64,000 nt of DNA, taken from NCBI RefSeq assembly GCF_036365525.1, contig NC_090399.1:66582862-66646861 (forward strand). Direction: 5' to 3'. Shown in pieces: positions 34,126 to 62,202 of this stretch. The notes beneath the pieces were generated by a model. It ran no database searches and was not told the DNA's origin. It worked only from the letters and a program-made list of their open reading frames with translations. The position numbers and the translations under genes are program-made. The first letter of the stretch is position 1. Each line of letters opens with the position of its first letter. The DNA is from Heterodontus francisci (taxonomy: Eukaryota).

Positions 34126-34359
34126 NNNNNNNNNNNNNNNNNNNNNNNNNNNNNNNNNNNNNNNNNNNNNNNNNNNNNNNNNNNNNNNNNNNNNNNNNNN
34201 NNNNNNNNNNNNNNNNNNNNNNNNNNNNNNNNNNNNNNNNNNNNNNNNNNNNNNNNNNNNNNNNNNNNNNNNNNNNNNNNNNNNNNNNNNNNNNNNNNNN
34301 NNNNNNNNNNNNNNNNNNNNNNNNNNNNNNNNNNNNNNNNNNNNNNNNNNNNNNNNNNN
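34126..34359. other. Assembly gap (234 N)
   Basis: Run of N characters. Confidence 1.
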
Positions 34360-35280: not shown

Positions 35281-36750
35281 TGTCAGAGTAAGGGTGGTCC
35301 CTCAGTTCAGTGATGTCTCCCCGCTGATTCTCCCCCAGGCTGTAAGGAGATGTCAGAGTAAGGGTGGTCCCACGGTTCAGTGATGTCTGTCTGCTGATTC
35401 TCCCCCAGGCTGTAAGGAGATGTCAGAGTAAGGGTGGTCCCACGGTTCAGTGATGTCTCCCTGCTGATTCTCCCCCAGGCTGTAAGGAGATGTCAGAGTA
35501 AGGGTGGTCCCACGGTTCAATGATGTCTCTCTGCTGATTCTCCCCCAGGCTGCAAGGAGATGTCAGAGTAAGGGTGGTCCCACGGTTCAGTGATGTCTCT
35601 CTGCTGATTCTCCCCCAGGCTGTAAGGAGATGTCAGAGTAAGGGTGGTCTCTCGGTTCAGTGATGTCTCTCTGCTGATTCTCCCCCAGGCTGCAAGGAGA
35701 TGTCAGAGTAAGGGTGGTCCCACGGTTCAGTGATGTCTCTCTGCTGATTCTCCTCCAGGCTGTAAGGAGATGTCAGAGTAAGGGTGGTCTCTCGGTTCAG
35801 TGATGTCTCCCTGCTGATTCTCCCCCAGGCTGTAAGGAGATGTCAGAGTAAGGGTGGTCCCACGGTTCAGTGATGTCTCTCTGCTGATTCTCCCCCAGGC
35901 TGTAAGGAGATGTCAGAGTAAGGGTGGTCCCTCAGTTCAATGATGTCTCTCTGCTGATTCTCCCCCAGGCTGTAAGGAGATGTCAGAGTAAGGGTGGTCC
36001 CACGGTTCAGTGATGTCTCTCTGCTGATTCTCCCCCAGGCTGTAAGGAGATGTCAGAGTAAGGGTGGTCCCTCAGTTCAATGATGTCTCTCTGCTGATTC
36101 TCCCCCAGGCTGTAAGGAGATGTCAGAGTAAGGGTGGTCTCTCGGTTCAGTGATGTCTCCCTGCTGATTCTCCCCCAGGCTGTAAGGAGATGTCAGAGTA
36201 AGGGTGGTCCCTCAGTTCAGTGATGTCTCTCTGCTGATTCTCCCCCAGGCTGTAAGGAGATGTCAGAGTAAGGGTGGTCCCTCAGTTCAGTGATGTCTCT
36301 CTGCTGATTCTCCCCCAGGCTGTAAGGAGATGTCAGAGTAAGGGTGGTCCCTCAGTTCAATGATGTCTCTCTGCTGATTCTCCCCCAGGCTGTAAGGAGA
36401 TGTCAGAGTAAGGGTGGTCTCTCGGTTCAGTGATGTCTCCCTGCTGATTCTCCCCCAGGCTGTAAGGAGATGTCAGAGTAAGGGTGGTCCCTCAGTTCAG
36501 TGATGTCTCTCTGCTGATTCTCCCCCAGGCTGTAAGGAGATGTCAGAGTAAGGGTGGTCCCTCAGTTCAATGATGTCTCCCTGCTGATTCTCCCCCAGGC
36601 TGTAAGGAGATGTCAGAGTAAGGGTGGTCCCACGGTTCAGTGATGTCTCCCTGCTGATTCTCCTCCAGGCTGTAAGGAGATGTCAGAGTAAGGGTGGTCC
36701 CTCGGTTCAGTGATGTCTCCCTGCTGATTCTCCTCCAGGCTGTAAGGAGA
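35281..36750 (+). repeat. 70-bp tandem repeat, 21 copies (TGTCAGAGTAAGGGTGGTCCCACGGTTCAGTGATGTCTCTCTGCTGATTCTCCCCCAGGCTGTAAGGAGA)
   Basis: Units start at 35281, 35351, ... 36681 with exact period 70 and no indels. Confidence 0.98.
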
Positions 36751-37784
36751 TGGCGGGAGGTCCTCTTCCCCAGCGATGGAAAGAAGAGGTCCTCCTGCCT
36801 GACCAAGCCTGGACGGAGATCACAGAGGAGGTTAGTAACTGTTGGGTCACCTGTTGTATCTGGGTCCAGTTCAGGAAGAGGCTCAATGACCTCCTACACT
36901 CAACCAAGGTAAGTGGCACCTTTCGAAATTGATGGTGTGATCTGGTTGTCCATAAACATTCTGCCACCCGGGTGTCAGAGCTATTCCAAGAACAGGAAGG
37001 TCATAGCAGATTGATGGAAGATGACTGACTGCATATGTGAGACACGTCTCCCTCGTTTCTGACTTAGCCCTGGTGGGGCCCATGGCAGATTGAGTCAGTG
37101 TGATAGACGAGACATCCTCCCGGTGTTGATGAGGGGCCCAAGTGGAGACATTTGGAAATGTACAATATCTGCATCCTTGTCCTTTCAGAAAAGGGCCACA
37201 AGAGGAGGGAGGCGGCCAGGACTGGTGGGAGGGTGCCCGACCTGAGGCCTTTAACTCAGGCCATGGGGGTGTCCACCCAGACTATGACTGTTGTCATGTC
37301 ACAGTCATACGAGCGCATGGCTTCATCCATCGAGAGGTTGGCGACTCTCTTGGAGAGTCACATTCCACAGACAGGCCGTGACCTTTAAATCCTCGCCTTG
37401 GCCATGAGTTCAGATTCAGTGGTAGGATGCTCGAAGGACCAGGAGCATGGAGAGTTTTCCTGCTCCAATCCATTTCTGGTGAGCAGGGAGGTCCCAACAA
37501 GCCTCGAGAGGGAGGAGGAGAGGATGCCCTCCACATCTGGGGTCTCCCCTCAGGGTGCTCCAAGTGTGGACACCGGCTCCTCAGCCCCTCTGCCAGTGAG
37601 TCCAGCTCCAGCAGTCGCGATGCCAGAGGACAGCCCTGCACTGGGGCAGGAGACCCGCAGACAGCCGGGACTATCCAGGCCTCAGACGCACAGAGGACAC
37701 CCACCGAAGACATCCCAGGCCAAGGGGCATCCTGATCAGCAGCCTGCCTCCAGTCCAGCTGCTCGGGCAGGGGTAACACAGTGA
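36681..37784 (+). pseudogene. Harbinger Myb/SANT-like DNA-binding protein pseudogene (two exons, frameshifted)
   Basis: Exon 1 reads RVVPRFSDVSLLILLQAVRRWREVLFPSDGKKR, then after a frameshift AWTEITEEVSNCWVTCCIWVQFRKRLNDLL (trihelix W...W..RKR.NDL). Donor GTAAGT at 36909, acceptor cctttcAG at 37188. Exon 2 begins KGHKRREAARTGGRVPDLRPLT (TGGG-like motif) and has a Pro/Ser-rich tail. Confidence 0.8.
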
Positions 37785-43948: not shown

Positions 43949-45171
43949 TATAAAAGCAAAATACTGCGGATGCTGGAAATCTGAAACAAAAACAAGAAAT
44001 GCTGGAATCACTCAGCAGGTCTGGCAGCATCTGTGGAAAGAGAAGCAGAGTTAACGTTTCGGGTCAGTGACCCTTCTTCGGAACTGACAAATATTAGAAA
44101 AGTCACAGATTATAAACAAGTGAGGTGGGGGTTGGGCAAGAGATAACAAAGGAGAAGGTGCAGATTGGACCAGGCCACATAGCTGACCAAAAGGTCATGG
44201 AGCAAAGGCAAACAATATGTTAATGGTGTGTTGAAAGACAAAGCATTAGTACAGATTAGGTGTGAATATACTGAATATTGAACAGCAGCAAGTGCAAACC
44301 TGAAGAAAAACAACCTGAAAAAAACAGTGGGTAAGCAAACTGAACAAACTAAGATGAAATGAAATAAATGCAAAAAAAGATTGTAAAAAATGTAAAAAGG
44401 AATGTACAAAAAAAGGAAGAAAAAAAAAAAAACTAAAAATGACTAAAACTGAAAGTAAAATGGGGGGCTGTCATGCTCTGAAATTATTGAACTCAATGTT
44501 CAGTCCGGCAGGCTGTAGTGTGCCTAATCGGTAGATGAGATGCTGTTCCTCGAGCTTGTGTTGATGTTCACTGGAACACTGCAGCAATCCCAGGACGAGA
44601 TGTGAGCATGAGAGCAGGGGGGAGTGTTGAAATGGCAAGCAACCGGAAGCTCAGGGTCCTGCTTGCGGACTGAGCGGAGATGTTCCGCAAAGCGGTCACC
44701 CAGTCTGCGCTTGGTCTCCCCAATGTAGAGGAGACCACACTGTGAGCAGCGAATACAGTATACTACATTGAAAGAAGTACAAGTAAATCGCTGCTTCACC
44801 TGAAAGGAGTGTTTGGGGCCTGGGATAGTGAGGAGAGAGGAGGGAAATGGGCAGGTATTACACCTCCTGCGATTGCAAGGGAAGGTGCCCTGGGACGGGG
44901 ACGAGGTGGTGGGGGTAATGGAGGAGTGGACCAGGGTGTCGCGGAGGGAACGATCCCTTTGGAATGCTGACAGGGGAAGGGAGGGGAAGATGCGACTGGT
45001 AGTGGCATCACGCTGGAGGTGGCGAAAATGGCGGAGGATGATCCTTTGGATATGGAGGCTGGTGGGATGAAAAGTGAGGACAAGGGGAACCCTGTCACGG
45101 TTCTGGGAGGGAGGGGAAGGGGTGAGGGTAGAGGTGCGGGGAATGGGTCGGACACGGTTGAGGACCCTGTC
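43949..45171 (-). mobile_element. 5'-truncated Penelope-like retroelement (GIY-YIG endonuclease C-terminus plus 3' pLTR), copy 1, frameshifted
   Basis: Peptide NVVYCIRCSQCGLLYIGETKRRLGDRFAEH...PVACHF. 11-bp target-site duplication CCTCACCCTGG at 43938-43948 and 45172-45182. A 1-nt deletion near 44596 relative to the other copy shifts the frame. Confidence 0.92.
44049..44085 (-). ncRNA. Minimal type I hammerhead ribozyme-like motif in the Penelope 3' end (U4C core variant)
   Basis: Minus strand AGTT-CCGAAGA-A-GGGTC(ACT)GACCC-GAAA-CG-TT-AACT. Helix I is AGTT/AACT, helix II GGGTC/GACCC, and helix III is the loopless palindrome ACGT, with predicted cleavage after GUU. Confidence 0.65.
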
Positions 45172-45967
45172 CCTCACCCTGGGATTGATTCTCCCTCCTG
45201 GTTACTGGATCACAGTCTGTTTTTACCCAGAGTCTTCCCTCTGTCAAACAATTTCCCTTTTTGTCTGAAATCTCCTTCAGAACTTGCTGGTGAATCTGGT
45301 AAATGGAGCAGAGGGACTCCTTCTACTGAGATCTCAGAGTTCACATCTACACATCTTCACTCAATTGTTTCTCAGCACCAGTAACAAGTTTCAAATGAAG
45401 TAAAGAAAACAACAATATGTTTAATTGTGGAACCAATTTTCCACAGAAAAATTACTTGTGTTACGGGGGTGTGTGGAATTTTTATAACACGGGACAGGGG
45501 CCTCAGAAAGCAGTAAGACTCCAGCTAAATGGACACTACTGGAAAATCTCTCACATTGTGAAATCCAGTTTAGATATCTTAGTTCTTTATCTTTGGTCCT
45601 TACCTTATCTTACACTATATTTATTCATTGGTCATTACTATTTCATCTGTTTTAAGTTATTTAAATTATACACACTAACTTGCATCGAGCACTAAAGGAC
45701 TAAACAAAATTTTAAACATTTACTGTCTCACGCTTACACAACCCAGTACAAGTGTTAAAGACAAAAAGCATCTCTTTTCCCCTCGACACTGAATTCCCAC
45801 TCTCACTAAATTCTAACCTTCCCTCTCAGTTTCCGTTGCAATCTGTGGTTACACTGTGTGTTCCAGCAGAAATCTTTTACTTTTATATCTCACTGAATCA
45901 CATCCAAGTTACAACTGTTCAGTCAGTTTCAGCACATTTACCCCCTATTCAGGCAATTACTTCCATC

Positions 45968-46389: not shown

Positions 46390-48007
46390 TCTGAGCCCAT
46401 CTGGAGAACATAGAGAACGGACCTGAATGAGAAGGGCAGCTGCAGAGAGATTCAAACCGGTGAAAGAAAGGGAGGCCCGGCACACGGAGAGCGGACCTGT
46501 GTGAGAAAGGCAGCGGCGGCAGAGAGGGAGGCCCGGCACACGGAGAGCGGACCTGTGTGAGAAAGGCAGCGGCGGCAGAGAGGGAGGCCCGGCACACGGA
46601 GAGCGGACCTGTGTGAGAAAGGCAGCGGCGGCAGAGAGCCCTTTCTACCTGTTTCCCCCTGTCATAGCCGAGTTGGACGTCACAGGAAAACAGGTAGGTG
46701 ATTGGTGGGTATCTCTTCCGTGTCTCTTTTTCGCCAAGGGGTTTAAAACAAGAGACGTTATTACAGCTGAAGAGTACAGTTAAGAAATTCACCTTTAAAA
46801 TGTTTAACATCCAAATTAAATAATTAAATGGAATAAAGATGGCTGGGCAGGAGATGTGTTGCAACTGCAGTCTGTGAGAGCTGGTGGACGCCGGTGTGAT
46901 TCACGGTGACCACATCTGCAGCAAGTGTTGGCTGCTCGAGGACCTTCGGCTCAGTGTTGATGAGCTGGAGTCCGAGCTGCAGACACTGCGACACATCAGG
47001 GACTGGGAGAGTTAGCTGGACACTGTGTTTCAGGAGACAGTCACACCCTTTATCTTAATTACATCCAATCTGGACCGTGGTCAGGGACAGGAGGGTGTGA
47101 CTACGAGTGAGGCAGGTATCGGGATCAAGAATTTAGCTTTGGAGGAGCCTCAGCCAGTGCCCTTATCCCATAGGTACGAGGTTCTTGCTCCCAGTGTGGA
47201 CGAGAGCACAGACTACAGGGAGGATGAGCAAACTGACCACAGCACCGTGGTTCAGAGTACCATTCAAGTGGTGGGGGTGGGGAGGGAGGGAGAGAAGAGA
47301 AATGTGGTAGTCATAGAGGATAGTATAGTGAGGGGAATAGATACTGTTCTCTGCAGCAAAGACAGGGAATCCCGAAGGCAGTGTTGCCTACCTGGTGCCA
47401 AGATTAAGGACATCTCTTCTGGGCTGGAGAGGAACTTGGAGTGGGAGGGAAAGGATCCAGTTGTCGTGGTCCACATAGGCACCAACGACATAGGTAGAAT
47501 TAGGAAAGAGGTTCTGCTGAGGGACTATGAGCACCTCAGGGCTAAATTAAAAAGCAGAACCACAATGATAATAATCTCCGGATTACTACTTGAGCCACGT
47601 GCAAATTGGTGTCGGGTAAATAAGATTAGAGAGGTAAACAGGTGGCTCAAAGATTGGTGTGGGAGAAATGGGTTCCGATTCATGGGGCACTGGCACCAGT
47701 ACTGGGGAAAGAGAGCTGTTCCATTGGGATGGGCTTCATTTGAACCATGCTGGGACCAGTGTCCTGGCGAATCGTATAACTAGGGTTGCAGATAGGACTT
47801 TAAAGTAATTAGTGGGGGGCAGAGTTCAATTGAACGGAAGTTTAAAAAATCAAGAAGAAACGTGAGAGCAAAGGTGCAGGGTAGTGAAGAGGTGAACGGG
47901 AATCGAAGTGTGACAGGATGGGGCAGAAAATATAAGCAGAAGAGTGCAGCAGATATTTAAAACCAGAATGAGTAATAATGGTAAAAAGGTCAAAGCTTAA
48001 GGCTCTT
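46390..48007 (+). mobile_element. CR1-type LINE 5'UTR + ORF1 (Zn-finger/leucine zipper + SGNH esterase), truncated at the ORF2 start, copy 1
   Basis: ATG at 46839. CxxC...HICSKC-LLEDLRLSVDELESEL, then EDSIVRG, CLPGAKIKD, VVVHIGTNDIG and DGLHLN. In-frame stops present. Ends at SKLKAL, where ORF2 would begin. 5' boundary approximate. Confidence 0.88.
46470..46637 (+). repeat. CpG-rich 56-bp VNTR in the CR1 5'UTR (3 copies)
   Basis: Unit GGGAGGCCCGGCACACGGAGAGCGGACCTGTGTGAGAAAGGCAGCGGCGGCAGAGA. There are 5 copies at 60549-60828 and a 77-bp version x3 at 51609-51820. Confidence 0.9.
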
Positions 48008-50578: not shown

Positions 50579-51891
50579 AACCCCTGTGTTACGGGGGTGT
50601 GTGGAATTTTTATAACACGGGACAGGGGCCTCAGAAAGCAGTAAGACTCCAGCTAAATGGACACTACTGGAAAATCTCTCACATTGTGAAACCCGGTTTA
50701 GATATCTTCGTTCTTTATCTTTGGTCCTTACCTTATCTTACACTATATTTATTCATTGGTCATTACTATTTCTTCTGTTTTAAGTTATTTAAATTATACA
50801 CACTAACTTGCATCGAGCACTAAAGGACTAAACAAAATTTTAAACATTTACTGTCTCACGCTTACACAACCCAGTACAAGTGTTAAAGACAAAAAGCATC
50901 TCTTTTCCCCTCGACACTGAATTCCCACTCTCACTAAATTCTAACCTTCCCTCTCAGTTTCCGTTGCAATCTGTGGTTACACTGTATGTTCCAGCAGAAA
51001 TCTTTTACTTTTATATCTCACTGAATCACATCCAAGTTACAACTGTTCAGTCAGTTTCAGCACATTTACCCCCTATTCAGGCAATTACTTCCATCTGATT
51101 GACTGTTAACTGTTCATCTGACTTACACTGTTTCCTGTTCACTGTTAACCTGAATAAACTGTTCACTGTTAACCTGAATAAACTGTTCACTGTTAACCTG
51201 AATAAACTGTTCATTGTTAACCTGAATAAACTGTACACTGTACACCTGATTTATACTGTTCACCTGATTTATATTGTTCACCTGATTTATACTGTTCACC
51301 TGAATAAACTGTTCACCGGTCACCTGACTTGCAGTTTTTAAAGTCTGATGTGAAATTCTAAATGTTCAGAGCAAATTTCAGTCTGACCTCCTCACCCACT
51401 GCTTATTAAACATGAAACTTCCCACTCGGTTAATGTTCAGATCTGTGATTACACTGTGCTGTATCTGGGAGCTGATTCGATTCCTTTAATTCGCTGAGAT
51501 CAGATCGCGTTCCTTTAATTTTCTGGGATCTGAGCCCATCTGGAGAACATAGAGAACGGACCTGAATGAGAAGGGCAGCTGCAGAGAGATTCAAACCGGT
51601 GACAGAGAGGGAGGCTCGGCACACGGAGAGCGGACCTGTGTGAGAAGGGCAGCGGCGGCAGAGAGATACAAACCGGTGACAGAGAGGGAGGCTCGGCACA
51701 CGGAGAGCGGACCTGTGTGAGAAGGGCAGCGGCGGCAGAGAGATACAAACCGGTGACAGAGAGGGAGGCCCGGCGCACGGAGAGCGGACCTGTGTGAGAA
51801 AGGCAGCGGCGGCAGAGAGCCCTTTCCACCTGTTTCTACCTGTCAGAGCCGAAGTGTGACGTCACAGGAAAACAGGTAGGTGATTGGTGGG

Positions 51892-52133
51892 ACAAAAACA
51901 AGAAATGCTGGATTCACTCAGCAGGTCTGGCAGCATCTGTGGAAAGAGAAGCAGAGTTAACGTTTCGGGTCAGTGACCCTTCTTCGGAACTCCGGAGTTC
52001 CGAAGAAGGGTCACTGACCCGAAACGTTAACTCTGCTTCTCTTTCCACAGATGCTGCCAGACCTGCTGAGTGAATCCAGCATTTCTTGTTTTTGTTTCAG
52101 ATTTCCAGCATCCGCAGTATTTTGCTTTTATTT
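51892..52133. mobile_element. 242-bp Penelope-derived fold-back insertion: perfect 204-bp palindrome (51892-52095) plus tail, with 15-bp TSD
   Basis: Arms 51892-51993 and 51994-52095 are exact reverse complements (centre TCC|GGA). TAGGTGATTGGTGGG is duplicated at 51877-51891 and 52134-52148. A single-copy empty site is present at ~46695 and ~60887. Confidence 0.95.
51996..52032 (+). ncRNA. Minimal hammerhead-like motif in the right arm of the palindrome (mirror copy on the - strand at 51955-51991)
   Basis: AGTT-CCGAAGA-AGGGTCACTGACCC-GAAA-CGTT-AACT, identical to the motif in the Penelope copies. Confidence 0.62.
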
Positions 52134-53452
52134 TAGGTGATTGGTGGGTATCTCTTCCGTGTCTCTTTTTCGCCAAGTGGTTTAAAACAAGAGACGTTAT
52201 TACAGCTGAAGAGTACAGTTAATAAATTCACTTTTAAAATGTTTAACATCCAAATTAATTAATTAAATAGAATAGAGATGGTTGGACAGGCGATATGTTG
52301 CAGCTGTAATATGTGGGAGCTGGTGGACGCCGGTGTGATTCACGGTGACCACATCTGCAGCAAGTGTTGGCTGCTCGAGGACCTTCGGCTCAGAGTTGAT
52401 GAGCTGGAGTCCGAGCTGCAGACACTGCGACACATCAGGGAGGGGGAGAGTTACCTGGACACTGTGTTTCAGGAGACAGTCACACCCCTTAGATTATTTA
52501 CATCCAATTTGGACCGTGGTCAGGGACAGCAGGGTGTGACTGCGAGTGAGGCAGGTATCGGGATCCAGAATTTAGCTTTGGAGGAGCCTCGGTCAGTGCC
52601 CTTATCCAATAGGTACGAGGTTCTTACTCCCAGTGTGGATGAGGGCACAGACTGCAGGGAGGATGAGCAAACTGACCACAGCACCGTGGTTCAGAGTGTC
52701 ATTCAAGTGGTGGTGGTGGGGGGGGGGGGGGGTAGAAAAGAGAAATGTGGTAGTCACAGAGGATAGTATAGTGAGGGGAATAGATACTGTTCTATGCAGC
52801 AAAGACAGGGAATCCCGAAGGCTGTGTTGCCTACCTGGTGCCAAGATTAAGGACATCTCTTCTGGGCTGGAGAGGAACTTGGAGTGGGAGGGAAAGGATG
52901 CAGTTGACGTGGTCTACGTAGATACCGACGACATAGGTAGAATTAGGAAAGAGGTTCTGCTGAGGGACTATGGGCAGCTTGAGGCTAAATTAAAAAGCAG
53001 AACCAGAAAGGTAATAATCTCCGGATTACGACCTGAGCCACGTGCAAATTGGTGGAGGGTAAATAAGATTTGAGAGGTAAACTGGTGGCTCAAAGATTGG
53101 TGTGGGAGAAATGGGTTTCGATTCATGGGGCACTGGCACCAGTCCTGGGGAAAGAGAACTGTTCCGTTTGGATGGGCTTCACTTGAACCAGACTGGGACC
53201 AGTGTCCTGGCAAATCATATAACTAGGGTTGTAGATAGGACTTTAAAGTAATTAGTGGGGGTCAGGGTTCAATAGAAGGGAAGTTTAAAAAATCAAAAAG
53301 AAACGTGAGAGCAAAGGTGCAGGGTAGTGAAGAGGTGAACGGGAATCAAAGTGTGACAGGATGGGGCAGAAAATATAAGCAGAAGAGTGCAGCAGATATT
53401 TAAAACCAGAATGAGTAATAATGGTAAAAAGGTCAAAGCTTAAGGCTCTTGA

Positions 53453-57657: not shown

Positions 57658-58879
57658 TATAAAAGCAAAATACTGCGGATGCTGGAAATCTGAAACAAAA
57701 ACAAGAAATGCTGGAATCACTCAGCAGGTCTGGCAGCATCTGTGGAAAGAGAAGCAGAGTTAACGTTTCGGGTCAGTGACCCTTCTTCGGAACTGACAAA
57801 TATTAGAAAAGTCACAGATTATAAACAAGTGAGGTGGGGGTTGGGCAAGAGATAACAAAGGAGAAGGTGCAGATTGGACCAGGCCACATAGCTGACCAAA
57901 AGGTCATGGAGCAAAGGCAAACAATATGTTAATGGTGTGTTGAAAGACAAAGCATTAGTACAGATTAGGTGTGAATATACTGAATATTGAACAGCAGCAA
58001 GTGCAAACCTGAAGAAAAACAACCTGAAAAAAACAGTGGGTAAGCAAACTGAACAAACTAAGATGAAATGAAATAAATGCAAAAAAAGATTGTAAAAAAT
58101 GTAAAAAGGAATGTAAAAAAAAGGAAGAAAAAAAAATAACTAAAAATGACTAAAACTGAAAGTAAAATGGGGGGCTGTCATGCTCTGAAATTATTGAACT
58201 CAATGTTCAGTCCGGCAGGCTGTAGTGTGCCTAATCGGTAGATGAGATGCTGTTCCTCGAGCTTGTGTTGATGTTCACTGGAACACTGCAGCAATCCCAG
58301 GACAGAGATGTGAGCATGAGAGCAGGGGGGAGTGTTGAAATGGCAAGCAACCGGAAGCTCAGGGTCCTGCTTGCGGACTGAGCGGAGATGTTCCGCAAAG
58401 CGGTCACCCAGTCTGCGCTTGGTCTCCCCAATGTAGAGGAGACCACACTGTGAGCAGCGAATACAGTATACTACATTGAAAGAAGTACAAGTAAATCGCT
58501 GCTTCACCTGAAAGGAGTGTTTGGGGCCTGGGATAGTGAGGAGAGAGGAGGTAAATGGGCAGGTATTACACCTCCTGCGATTGCAAGGGAAGGTGCCCTG
58601 GGACGGGGACGAGGTGGTGGGGGTAATGGAGGAGTGGACCAGGGTGTCGCGGAGGGAACGATCCCTTTGGAATGCTGACAGGGGAAGGGAGGGGAAGATG
58701 CGACTGGTAGTGGCATCACGCTGGAGGTGGCGAAAATGGCGGAGGATGATCCTTTGGATATGGAGGCTGGTGGGATGAAAAGTGAGGACAAGGGGAACCC
58801 TGTCACGGTTCTGGGAGGGAGGGGAAGGGGTGAGGGTAGAGGTGCGGGGAATGGGTCGGACACGGTTGAGGGCCCTGTC
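57658..58879 (-). mobile_element. 5'-truncated Penelope-like retroelement, duplicated copy with open GIY-YIG C-terminal frame (58178-58879)
   Basis: Peptide ...VVYCIRCSQCGLLYIGETKRRLGDRFAEH...LEEQHLIYRLGTLQPAGLNIEFNNFRA*. TSD at 57647-57657 and 58880-58890 (1 mismatch). Confidence 0.92.
57758..57794 (-). ncRNA. Minimal hammerhead-like motif in the Penelope 3' end (duplicated copy)
   Basis: Identical to 44049-44085. Confidence 0.65.
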
Positions 58880-60105
58880 CCTCACTCTGGGATTGATTCT
58901 CCCTCCTGGTTACTGGATCACAGTCTGTTTTTACCCAGAGTCTTCCCTCTGTCAAACAATTTCCCTTTTTGTCTGAAATCTCCTTCAGAACCTGCTGGTG
59001 AATCTGGTAAATGGAGCAGAGGGACTCCTTCTACTGAGATCTCAGAGTTCACATCTACACATCTTCACTCAATTGTTTCTCAGCACCAGTAACAAGTTTC
59101 AAATGAAGTAAAGAAAACAACAATATGTTTAATTGTGGAACCAATTTTCCACAGAAAAATTACTTGTGTTACGGGGGTGTGTGGAATTTTTATAACACGG
59201 GACAGGGGCCTCAGAAAGCAGTAAGACTCCAGCTAAATGGACACTACTGGAAAATCTCTCACATTGTGAAATCCAGTTTAGATATCTTAGTTCTTTATCT
59301 TTGGTCCTTACCTTATCTTACACTATATTTATTCATTGGTCATTACTATTTCATCTGTTTTAAGTTATTTAAATTATACACACTAACTTGCATCGAGCAC
59401 TAAAGGACTAAACAAAATTTTAAACATTTACTGTCTCACGCTTACACAACCCAGTACAAGTGTTAAAGACAAAAAGCATTTCTTCTCCCCTCTGCACTGA
59501 ATTCCCACTCTCACTAAATTCTCACCTTCCCTCTCAGTTTCCGTTGCAATCTGTGGTTACACTGTGTGTTCCAGCAGAAATCTTTTACTTTTATATCCCA
59601 CTGAATCACATCCAAGTTACAACTGTTCAGTCAGTTTCAGCACATTTACCCCCTGTTCAGGCAATTACTTCCATCTGATTGACTGTTAACTGTTCATCTG
59701 ACTTACACTGTTTCCTGTTCACTGTTCACCTGAATAAACTGTTCACTGTTATCCTGATTTATACTGTTCACTGTACACCTGATTTATACTGTTCATTGTT
59801 AGCCTGAATAAACTGTTCACCCGTCACCTGATTTATACTGTTCACCTGACTTATACTGTTCACCGGTCACCTGACTTGCAGTTGTAAAAGTCTGATGTGA
59901 AATTCTAAATGTTCAGAGCAAATTTCAGTCTGACCTCCTCACCCACCACTTATTAAACATGAAACTTCCCACTCGGTTAATGTTCAGATCTGTGATTACA
60001 CTGTGCTGTATCTGGGAGCTGATCCCATTCTTTAAATTTACAGGGATCTGATCCCATTCCTTTAATTCGCTGAGATCAGATCGCGTTCCTTTAATTTTCT
60101 GGGAT

Positions 60106-60463
60106 TAGATTAGATTAGATTAGAGATACAGCACTGAAACAGGCCCTTCGGCCCACCGAGTCTGTGCCGACCATCAACCACACATTTATACTAATCCTAC
60201 ACTAATCCCATATTCCTACCAAACATCCCCACCTGTCCCTATATTTCCCTACCACCTACCTATACTAGTGACAATTTATAATGGCCAATTTACCTATCAA
60301 CCTGCAAGTCTTTTGGCTTGTGGGAGGAAACCGGAGCACCCGGAGAAAACCCACGCAGACACAGGGAGAACTTGCAAACTCCACACAGGCAGTACCCGGA
60401 ATCGAACCCGGGTCCCTGGAGCTGTGAGGCTGCGGTGCTAACCACTGCGCCACTGTGCCGCCC
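60106..60463 (-). mobile_element. Full-length V-SINE (HE1-type), independent insertion
   Basis: Nearly identical to 50221-50578 but at a different site. GGAT flanks it at 60102-60105 and 60466-60469. Empty site ttctgggatctgagccc at ~46385 and ~51525. Confidence 0.92.
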
Positions 60464-60465
60464 AT

Positions 60466-62202
60466 GGATCTGAGCCCATCTGGAGAACATAGAGAACGGA
60501 CCTGAATGAGAAGGGCAGCTGCAGAGAGATTCAAACCGGTGACAGAAAGGGAGGCCCGGCACACGGAGAGCGGACCTGTGTGAGAAAGGCAGCGGCGGCA
60601 GAGAGGGAGGCCCGGCACACGGAGAGCGGACCTGTGTGAGAAAGGCAGCGGCGGCAGAGAGGGAGGCCCGGCACACGGAGAGCGGACCTGTGTGAGAAAG
60701 GCAGCGGCGGCAGAGAGGGAGGCCCGGCACACGGAGAGCGGACCTGTGTGAGAAAGGCAGCGGCGGCAGAGAGGGAGGCCCGGCACACGGAGAGCGGACC
60801 TGTGTGAGAAAGGCACCGGCGGCAGAGAGCCCTTTCTACCTGTTTCTACCTGTCATAGCCGAAGTGTGACGTCACAGGAAAACAGGTAGGTGATTGGTGG
60901 GTATCTCTTCCGTGTCTCTTTTTCGCCAAGCGGTTTAAAACAAGAGACGTTATTACAGCTGAAGAGTACAGTTAAGAAATTCAAATTAAAAATGTTTAAC
61001 ATCCAAATTAAATAATTAAATGGAATACAGATGGCTGGGCAGGAGATGTGTTGCAACTGCAGTCTGTGAGAGCTGGTGGACGCCGGTGTGATTCACGGTG
61101 ACCACATCTGCAGCAAGTGTTGGCTGCTCGAGGACCTTCGGCTCAGTGTTGATGAGCTGGAGTCCGAGCTGCAGACACTGTGACACATCAGGGACGGGGA
61201 GAGTTAGCTGGACACTGTGTTTCAGGAGACAGTCACACCCTTTATCTTAATTACATCCAATCTGGACCGTGGTCAGGGACAGGAGAGTGTGACTACGAGT
61301 GAGGCAGGTATCGGGATCAAGAATTTAGCTTTGGAGGAGCCTCAGCCAGTGCCCTTATCCAATAGGTACGAGGTTCTTGCTCCCAGTGTGGACGAGAGCA
61401 CGGACTACAGGGAGGATGAGCAAACTGACCACAGCACCGTGGTTCAGAGTACCATTCAAGTGGTGGGGGGGGGGGTGGGGGAGGGAGAGAAGAGAAATGT
61501 GGTAGTCATAGAGGATAGTATAGTGAGGGGAATAGATACTGTTCTCTGCAGCAAAGACAGGGAATCCCGAAGGCAGTGTTGCCTACCTGGTGCCAAGATT
61601 AAGGACATCTCTTCTGGGCTGGAGAGGAACTTGGAGTGGGAGGGAAAGGATCCAGTTGTCATGGTCCACGTTGGCACCAACGACATAGGTAGAATTAGGA
61701 AAGAGGTTCTGCTGAGGGACTATGAGCACCTCAGGGCTAAATTAAAAAGCAGAACCACAATGATAATAATCTCCGGATTACTACTTGAGCCACGTGCAAA
61801 TTGGTGTCGGGTAAATAAGATTTGAGAGGTAAACAGGTGGCTCAAAGATTGGTGTGGGAGAAATGGGTTCCGATTCATGGGGCACTGGCACCAGTACTGG
61901 GGAAAGAGAGCTGTTCCATTGGGATGGGCTTCATTTGAACCATGCTCGGACCAGTGTCCTGGCGAATCGTATAACTAGGGTTGCAGATAGGACTTTAAAG
62001 TCATTAGTGGGGGGCAGAGTTCAATTGAACGGAAGTTTAAAAAATCAAGAAGAAACGTGAGAGCAAAGGTGCAGGGTAGTGAAGAGGTGAACAGGAATCC
62101 AAGTGCGACAGGATGGGGCAGAAAATATAAGCAGAAGAGTGCAGCAGATATTTAAAACCAGAATGAGTAATAATGGTAAAAAGGTCAAAGCTTAAGGCTC
62201 TT
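60466..62202 (+). mobile_element. CR1-type LINE 5'UTR + ORF1, copy 3
   Basis: ATG at 61031. Shares the early TGA and TAG lesions with copy 1. Esterase motifs in ORFs 61217-61825 and 61854-62060 (WDGLHLN). Confidence 0.88.
60865..60876. promoter_or_regulatory. CRE/ATF palindrome TGTGACGTCACA in the CR1 5'UTR (also 51855-51866; mutated in copy 1)
   Basis: 12-bp palindrome containing the canonical TGACGTCA, just downstream of the CpG-rich VNTR. Function not shown. Confidence 0.4.

Follow-up and report, generated by a model that had tools for sequence, protein, structure and literature searches.

A palindromic 242-bp insertion in the genome of Heterodontus francisci: a minimal head-to-head copy of a Penelope-like element, probably formed by twin priming

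The window we have analyzed is a stretch of 64,000 nucleotides from contig NC_090399.1 of Heterodontus francisci. A 33-kb G-rich satellite lies at 1422-34075, with 486 copies of a unit of about 64 bp; it ends just before a stretch of N (34126-34359), and a 70-bp array follows at 35281-36752. From 42400 to 64000 the window contains a tandem array of 5–14-kb units, which continues in the same contig to about 66,676,000 and has at least eight units. Each unit includes a 5' fragment of a CR1/L2 LINE and a 33-bp satellite, and several have the same truncated copy of a Penelope-like element (PLE). One unit also carries a tRNA-headed SINE-like insertion (about 60110-60465, minus strand), with an (ATCTA)n tail and an apparent target site duplication (TSD).

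The palindrome described here is formed by two arms of 102 bp, 51892-51993 and 51994-52095, which are exact reverse complements with no loop. No other perfect palindrome in the window has arms longer than 9 bp, the length reached by the next-longest one. A 38-bp tail is present on the right arm alone (52096..52133, plus strand); it corresponds to the 30–40-bp extension of PLEs, a kind described in PMC3846280 and PMC11167929. The total insert, 51892-52133, measures 242 bp. It is flanked by 15-bp TSD copies on the plus strand, at 51877-51891 and 52134-52148, which match each other in sequence; the empty paralogues have a single copy. As its first three bases also match what follows in the element, the TSD proper measures 12–15 bp (locus L008). 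The target site is empty in both paralogous units of the window, at 46695..46709 and 60887..60901 (plus strand), when these are compared with the insertion locus. In fact, it is empty in all seven other units of the same contig (7/7, including these two), and also in the three dispersed relatives, out of four, in which the site was located. The closest array units are about 96–99% alike in the flanks of the target site. Since the arms are identical and paralogues with such similar flanks are empty, the insertion is recent. The palindrome, the TSD and the empty paralogues had been claimed by a sequence-only reading of this DNA, and all of them are borne out.

We number the element from the A of AGTTCCGAAG (+1, window 51996), in the 5' strand of hammerhead helix I. 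The long arm (51994..52133, plus strand) runs from +1 to about +138, tail included. The short, tail-less arm (51892..51993, minus strand) runs from +100 back to +1, plus two untemplated central bases; in sister insertions its end lies between about +97 and +102. The central CCGG (51992..51995) is absent from the element, whose native upstream sequence is TGTC, and is a member of a graded series of junction fillers. A predicted minimal type I hammerhead motif is found at 51994..52034 on the plus strand, on the basis of its sequence, the fold of the isolated arm and the architecture given in PMC4209133. Its exact reverse complement forms a mirror motif at 51953..51993 on the minus strand.

The arms are 99.3% identical over 136 bp to two truncated PLE copies in the window, which supports the Penelope origin already suggested for them. 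Both arms have GAATCC where the two local copies have GATTCC, as had been noticed. This difference had been taken as proof of one template, which it is not: An A at +79 is found in 53 of 153 arm positions, GAATCC is a common variant of the subfamily, and therefore, taken alone, it shows that the arms belong to the same subfamily, not that they come from one molecule.

An assembly or sequencing artefact, in the form of a chimeric fold-back read, has next to no chance of being the explanation. No read or contig among those listed spans the whole locus, and the raw reads of another individual which cover the central bases (about 25–33 per strand) are not assignable to this locus. Nevertheless, an artefact does not account for the exact TSD, the empty paralogues and arm ends typical of the family. 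The same centre is found at eight other loci, and other head-to-head joints are present in the raw reads of the other individual. The palindrome is real, and represents a Neptune-type PLE inserted head to head in minimal form.

The copy we have used as a reference for the parent element is truncated at its 5' end (57659..58900, minus strand) and includes finger, GIY-YIG, 3' UTR, hammerhead and tail; its CX4CX2C finger and GIY-YIG lie at 58181-58900. A duplicate, 99.4% alike, is found at 43950..45192 (minus strand). In a longer copy, L199, the parent ORF matches RVT_1 (E=3e-7) and GIY-YIG (E=0.0014, below the gathering score), and DKG and YIDD motifs are visible in L200/L199. Both the window copy and L199 have CNRRRCNTC, as expected from the CX2-5CxxC finger between RT and EN which PMC8557442 gives as a criterion for EN+ PLEs of Neptune/Nematis type. 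Classified in this way from its sequence features, the parent is an EN+ PLE of that type. Another copy, L224, is a partial tandem which forms pLTRs: A 654-bp truncated copy is followed by a full unit of about 3.28 kb, 96% alike. In its leader, hammerhead and tail precede a CAG which resembles a splice acceptor and, near +168, an ATG. The narrower label "Neptune-type" comes from the finger and, in part, from what we take to be the distribution of these elements in vertebrates. An inverted 5' copy, a 30–40-bp tail on one arm and a TSD are found together both at the locus and at sister loci.

The insertion lies in the 5' part of a CR1/L2-type LINE (51500..53450, plus strand, the 5' limit being provisional), with ORF1 from 52278. 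This ORF1 is frameshifted at a G run. The LINE fragment ends in the 33-bp satellite, into which it runs with ORF2 absent. A PDB search matched the esterase part of ORF1 to the ORF1 protein 4c1b (E=4.2e-7), while a Pfam search gave no name to this ORF. As for the 242-bp copy, it is dead on arrival: It has neither the upstream promoter-like region nor any ORF.

Head-to-head loci are very abundant in this genome: With an anchor placed away from the junction, at least 14,450 were found. The anchor matches overall are at least 80,913, under a terminal non-G filter. The samples described below were drawn mostly from the start of one contig; we have left out L071, a duplicate of L070, and six loci from the loose junction search which lack the anchor. 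This loose search gave at least 670 loci, whose centres vary and fall close to the edge of the hammerhead; the exact CCGG centre is found at nine loci genome-wide, each with its own TSD. The sequence-only reading had considered both a family and a mechanism, and such a distribution of centres points to a mechanism.

If a CCGG-centred master were the source of a non-autonomous palindromic mini-element, multiplied as a whole, this would explain why nine loci with their own TSDs have exactly the same centre, and why the short arm measures 101–103 bp in eight of them. We consider it very unlikely, and already largely refuted. The nine loci correspond to three haplotypes (6 + 2 + 1), each of them present in both arms. 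Among the 50 centres listed (hand counts), CCGG appears once, less often than a single G/C (7/50), and self-complementary spacers appear in another 7/50; the same arm ends are found with every other centre. The RNA of such a unit would be a 102-bp hairpin, burying the region to be copied. Transduced flanks or private mutations common to the CCGG loci were not found, beyond one variant in two loci (L002, L006), and no fixed internal junction with linked variants was seen across copies.

The fillers found at the junctions form a graded series: G/C, CC, CGA, CCG, CCGG, CCGGA, CCGAAGA. They fit a series which re-copies nearby sequence, and we infer that CCGG represents two CCGAA-type ends annealed through CG; of 100 listed ends at +1, 6 continue as CCGAA (hand count). 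Since centres are variable and the CCGG loci have three haplotypes, the centre is re-made at each insertion. The palindromic family which had been suggested is not supported. The structure is a recurrent by-product of PLE insertion, not a family.

The ends of the arms are not distributed at random. In 100 unselected arms among the matches listed, 3' ends are bimodal, with 46 at +132 to +136, 45 at +95 to +109 and 9 elsewhere. The 5' ends cluster at the 5' edge of the hammerhead: Among the 95 arms which end within -30..+52, 37 do so at -3..+4 (p=6e-16 against a uniform distribution). This hotspot is alike in non-inverted (22/61) and inverted (15/39) arms (Fisher p=0.83), while few ends (3/95, with 8.1 expected) are near the cleavage site, at +31..+37. 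It is therefore a property of all insertions and not the result of a ribozyme cut. The cluster likely marks the 5' end of the RNA.

The native sequence at the hotspot is TCAGTT, 29 nt below TATAAT; we take the former to be initiator-like and the latter to be a promoter motif. This arrangement suggests a transcription start at the hotspot. The same bases can also be read as a 3' splice site. In D. virilis, according to PMC4209133, the 5' end of helix I coincides with the end of an intron. We also looked at joints in assembled contigs, using runs guessed to be from RNA: None of the 15 joints listed, out of 92, has GT..AG ends, and contigs of this kind cannot show starts.

In hand counts of 100 listed cases each, the next cDNA base after ends at +2 is C in 54, A in 36 and G in 10, while after ends at +1 it is C in 36, T in 26 and A in 6, the other 32 continuing as a second subfamily. 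The C excess after +2 fits cap copying or C-tailing, and is partly due to local re-copying, many of these ends reading CCCT or CCGAAG. A cap-derived G at +1 was considered and rejected: The excess is weak and confounded by re-copying, and a cap G on one arm mimics the templated -1 of the other arm. In many cDNAs the end at +1/+2 is followed by short stretches copied again, in direct orientation, from nearby parts of the element (TCTTCGG, CCCTT), as if the RT had realigned at the template end; they are reminiscent of telomerase-like realignment or of end-joining insertions. The second young subfamily (32/100 listed) has a different sequence upstream of +1 and the same U4C hammerhead.

The hammerhead of the locus has all three helices, with an extra A before helix II and a palindromic AACGTT helix III, and its predicted cleavage site is after 52028. 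Its core (52000-52006) is CCGAAGA, a U4C change with respect to the canonical CUGANGA, which the sequence-only reading does not mention; the U4C core is present in 94 of the 100 young copies listed (hand count). According to PMC3088659, U4C is a known variant with reduced activity in vitro, which nevertheless sufficed in a viroid. Rfam detects nothing in the window at gathering scores and no hammerhead match at E<=10; at the locus it gave only sub-threshold matches to miRNA hairpins. In predicted folds the isolated arm forms helices I and II, including a 6-bp GGAGUU/AACUCU helix. In a read-through RNA, on the other hand, the predicted probability is 0.999 for the arm-arm duplex and about 1e-39 for helix I, and according to this model the hammerheads cannot fold in such a transcript. 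In the minimum-energy fold of the native context (57753-57800, minus strand), GUCAGU around +1 is paired with ACUGAC in helix II and the hammerhead is thereby blocked. If the RNA started at +1, this block would be absent, a possible start-dependent switch, although the fold is weak (z -0.3).

The ribozyme might define the junction, through cleavage or as an RT stop, and the back-to-back hammerheads or the hairpin RNA might be functional, for example as a source of endo-siRNA. We find this quite improbable. It is true that 2 nt separate the centre from the AGTT edge of helix I, as first described, that the fold of the isolated arm is better than that of the native context with its GUCAGU/ACUGAC block, that U4C can suffice in vivo, as in the viroid of PMC3088659, and that read-through transcription would give a perfect hairpin of 100 bp. 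The claim that the central G residues extend helix I holds in part: The 6-bp helix does form in the isolated arm, but the G residues are likely incidental. A role of the ribozyme in making the centre is not supported, given the equal clustering of ends in non-inverted copies, their avoidance of the cleavage site and a helix I which is practically absent from the read-through fold. Cleavage would place ends at +34, where they are scarce, and an RT should meet the 3' side of the structure first, not its 5' edge. In vitro insertion is unchanged by hammerhead mutants in PMC11167929. In addition, the LINE around the insertion is itself broken, and the genome has more than 14,000 equivalent loci. 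A hairpin RNA from the locus is possible in principle, with a putative siRNA role, as far as the predicted fold goes. Nevertheless, nothing sets this locus apart from thousands of equivalents.

How, then, are two inverted arms made? Twin priming is the explanation we favor, with some confidence: A separate short cDNA is primed at each nick, and the ends of these cDNAs are joined. An endonuclease, probably a dimer, would nick both strands about 14 nt apart. One nick would prime at the tail site (about +136) and the other at the tail-less site (about +100), on the same RNA or on two RNAs from the same source. Each cDNA would run toward the RNA 5' end, likely near +1/+2, and the two 3' ends would gain a few untemplated or locally re-copied bases. 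Short microhomology would then unite them; at this locus it is probably a pairing of CG with CG, giving a loop-free centre. Both hammerheads would be passengers.

In 44 classifiable loci (5/49 were excluded for lack of one tail arm plus one tail-less arm), the arm which reaches further 5' is the tail-less one in 21 and the tail arm in 10, while 13 are symmetric. In another 380 loci a short antisense tail piece is joined to a sense arm which starts at the hammerhead edge, with arms which overlap partly or not at all. We fetched 30 of these: In 22, the sense arm ends at +97 to +104 and an 11–17-bp TSD surrounds the whole unit. TSDs have a mode of 14 bp (31 of 60 resolved cases), with 56/60 at 13–16 bp; 28 of the 88 loci were left out of this count, as they have no resolvable exact TSD or lack the expected arm ends. 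Tail-less single arms with an adjacent TSD of at least 11 bp are also found (6/26). The priming-start regions are U-rich, and their microhomology with the target averages 1.35 and 1.5 nt, against 0.57 and 0.66 nt in the null. Asymmetric loci, fixed ends at +97 to +104 and TSDs of about 14 bp fit two primings, one per nick.

The alternative is a fold-back: A tail-primed cDNA reaches about +1, primes itself, copies back to about +100 and joins the other target end, and asymmetry comes from later deletion of the centre. Self-priming is what PMC3846280 proposes for such palindromes, and we give it an appreciable, though clearly smaller, share of probability. The loop-free centre of this locus and the self-complementary spacers mentioned above agree with it, as do several centres which fall on native hairpins (helix II, TTCCGAA, AATATT). 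The arms are also strongly concordant, with private changes common to both: At +78, only 4/76 loci are discordant, against 46 expected. Such near-constant concordance means that both arms come from one RNA or one source, which supports this part of the earlier claim. However, a fold-back leaves the fixed stop of the second arm, at +97 to +102, unexplained, as well as the intact TSDs around non-overlapping inversions and tail-less singles. Under this model the other arm should never extend further 5' than the tail arm; since the tail-less arm does so in 21/44, the model is a poor fit to the population. As a general mechanism, the fold-back second-strand synthesis of the sequence-only reading is not supported here, as many sister tail-less arms hold sequence which the tail-primed cDNA never reached. 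Strongly asymmetric centres are also found without arm divergence, in L047, L058, L061 and L069. In two loci, L036 and L052, the arms are of different subfamilies and differ at two diagnostic sites, which a fold-back cannot give.

Several points should be weighed against twin priming. This single symmetric locus agrees equally well with hairpin self-priming, and it is the population as a whole that carries the argument. If one RNA gave two overlapping cDNAs, strand displacement would have to occur; otherwise two RNAs from the same source would be required. Asymmetric centres could arise later, by deletion in unstable palindromes, and a further-reaching arm at -3..+4, as seen in 30/49 loci, is also predicted by this later-deletion model. 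Arm concordance could be kept by arm-to-arm conversion. Many single arms have no TSD in an exact-match test (36/58), or one under 11 bp in others. Two loci deserve mention on their own. In L014 (1400-1650) the long arm has two changes at +101 to +108 which match the target beside the short arm, which suggests arm-to-arm conversion after insertion. In L024 the inverted duplication reaches, on both arms, about 50 bp into flanking sequence which they share, with private changes in both, possibly through transduction or DNA-level inversion.

Twin priming may be given a more specific form, in which PLEs integrate through two mirrored reactions. A dimer would cut the two strands with a 14-nt stagger and, on one leader RNA capped at the first base of helix I, would prime a cDNA at each of two fixed sites. 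We put this forward tentatively, as somewhat less than an even prospect. If true, a single step would account for the inverted pLTR, the tail on one arm only, the palindrome at the junction and the abundance of stubs of about 140 bp, and an RNA start at +1 would also switch the ribozyme fold on.

By itself, the locus has little weight: It is a dead stub of an already described shape. The population, on the other hand, bears on how PLEs make inverted repeats and tails. For the in vitro system, it gives the exact predictions that nicks are staggered by about 14 nt, that copying starts at two fixed points, that the 5' end of the RNA is at helix I and that both arms have a single source. This genome is also shown to tolerate long inverted repeats by the thousands. 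The architecture itself is published, and the twin-priming reading is drawn from genomic copies.

In LINE-1 twin priming, a cDNA starts from each of two nicks, and the pair is joined in head-to-head orientation with microhomology. Most L1 inversions have no overlap and their second site is variable, whereas in this element the second start stays near +100 and the arms overlap in most cases, so that palindromes result. In titles and abstracts, with few subscription papers covered, we found no published twin-priming model for PLE inversions.

The minimal PLE hammerheads of PMC4209133 share the type I motif, the extra nucleotide before helix II, the short helix I and the palindromic helix III; the U4C core of the young subfamily is a difference. 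Opposite-strand motifs 100–700 bp apart were already noted in PMC4209133 and bioRxiv 10.64898/2026.07.22.740005. The latter, a retrozyme preprint, concerns tandem units. A non-LTR retrozyme, which needs head-to-tail tandem hammerhead units, was rejected, as the units here are inverted and single. An internal promoter has been mapped in the Penelope of D. virilis (PMC2377424).

Head-to-head inverted pLTRs, a junction palindrome, a one-sided 30–40-bp tail and a TSD have already been described in PMC3846280 and PMC8557442. The EN+ PLE insertions of these sources share with ours the inverted pLTR pieces, the junction palindrome, the tail on one arm, the TSD and the partial-tandem parent. The unit found here differs in measuring only 242 bp and having no ORF, and more than 14,000 loci allow mapping of both ends and of the junction. 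These sources invoke self-priming or endonuclease resolution, not twin priming.

According to PMC11167929, a PLE protein nicks and extends both strands in vitro, with two start sites separated by the tail; the text consulted does not connect two-strand extension with the inverted repeat. That element, Anolis Poseidon PAc, is from a different clade, while the one described here has a Neptune-type Zn finger. Shared features are two starts separated by the tail, nicking and extension of both strands, as proposed here, and a hammerhead in the leader, which is dispensable for insertion in PAc. The bimodal 3' ends of the arms match the two start sites and the two-strand nicking and extension reported for PAc.
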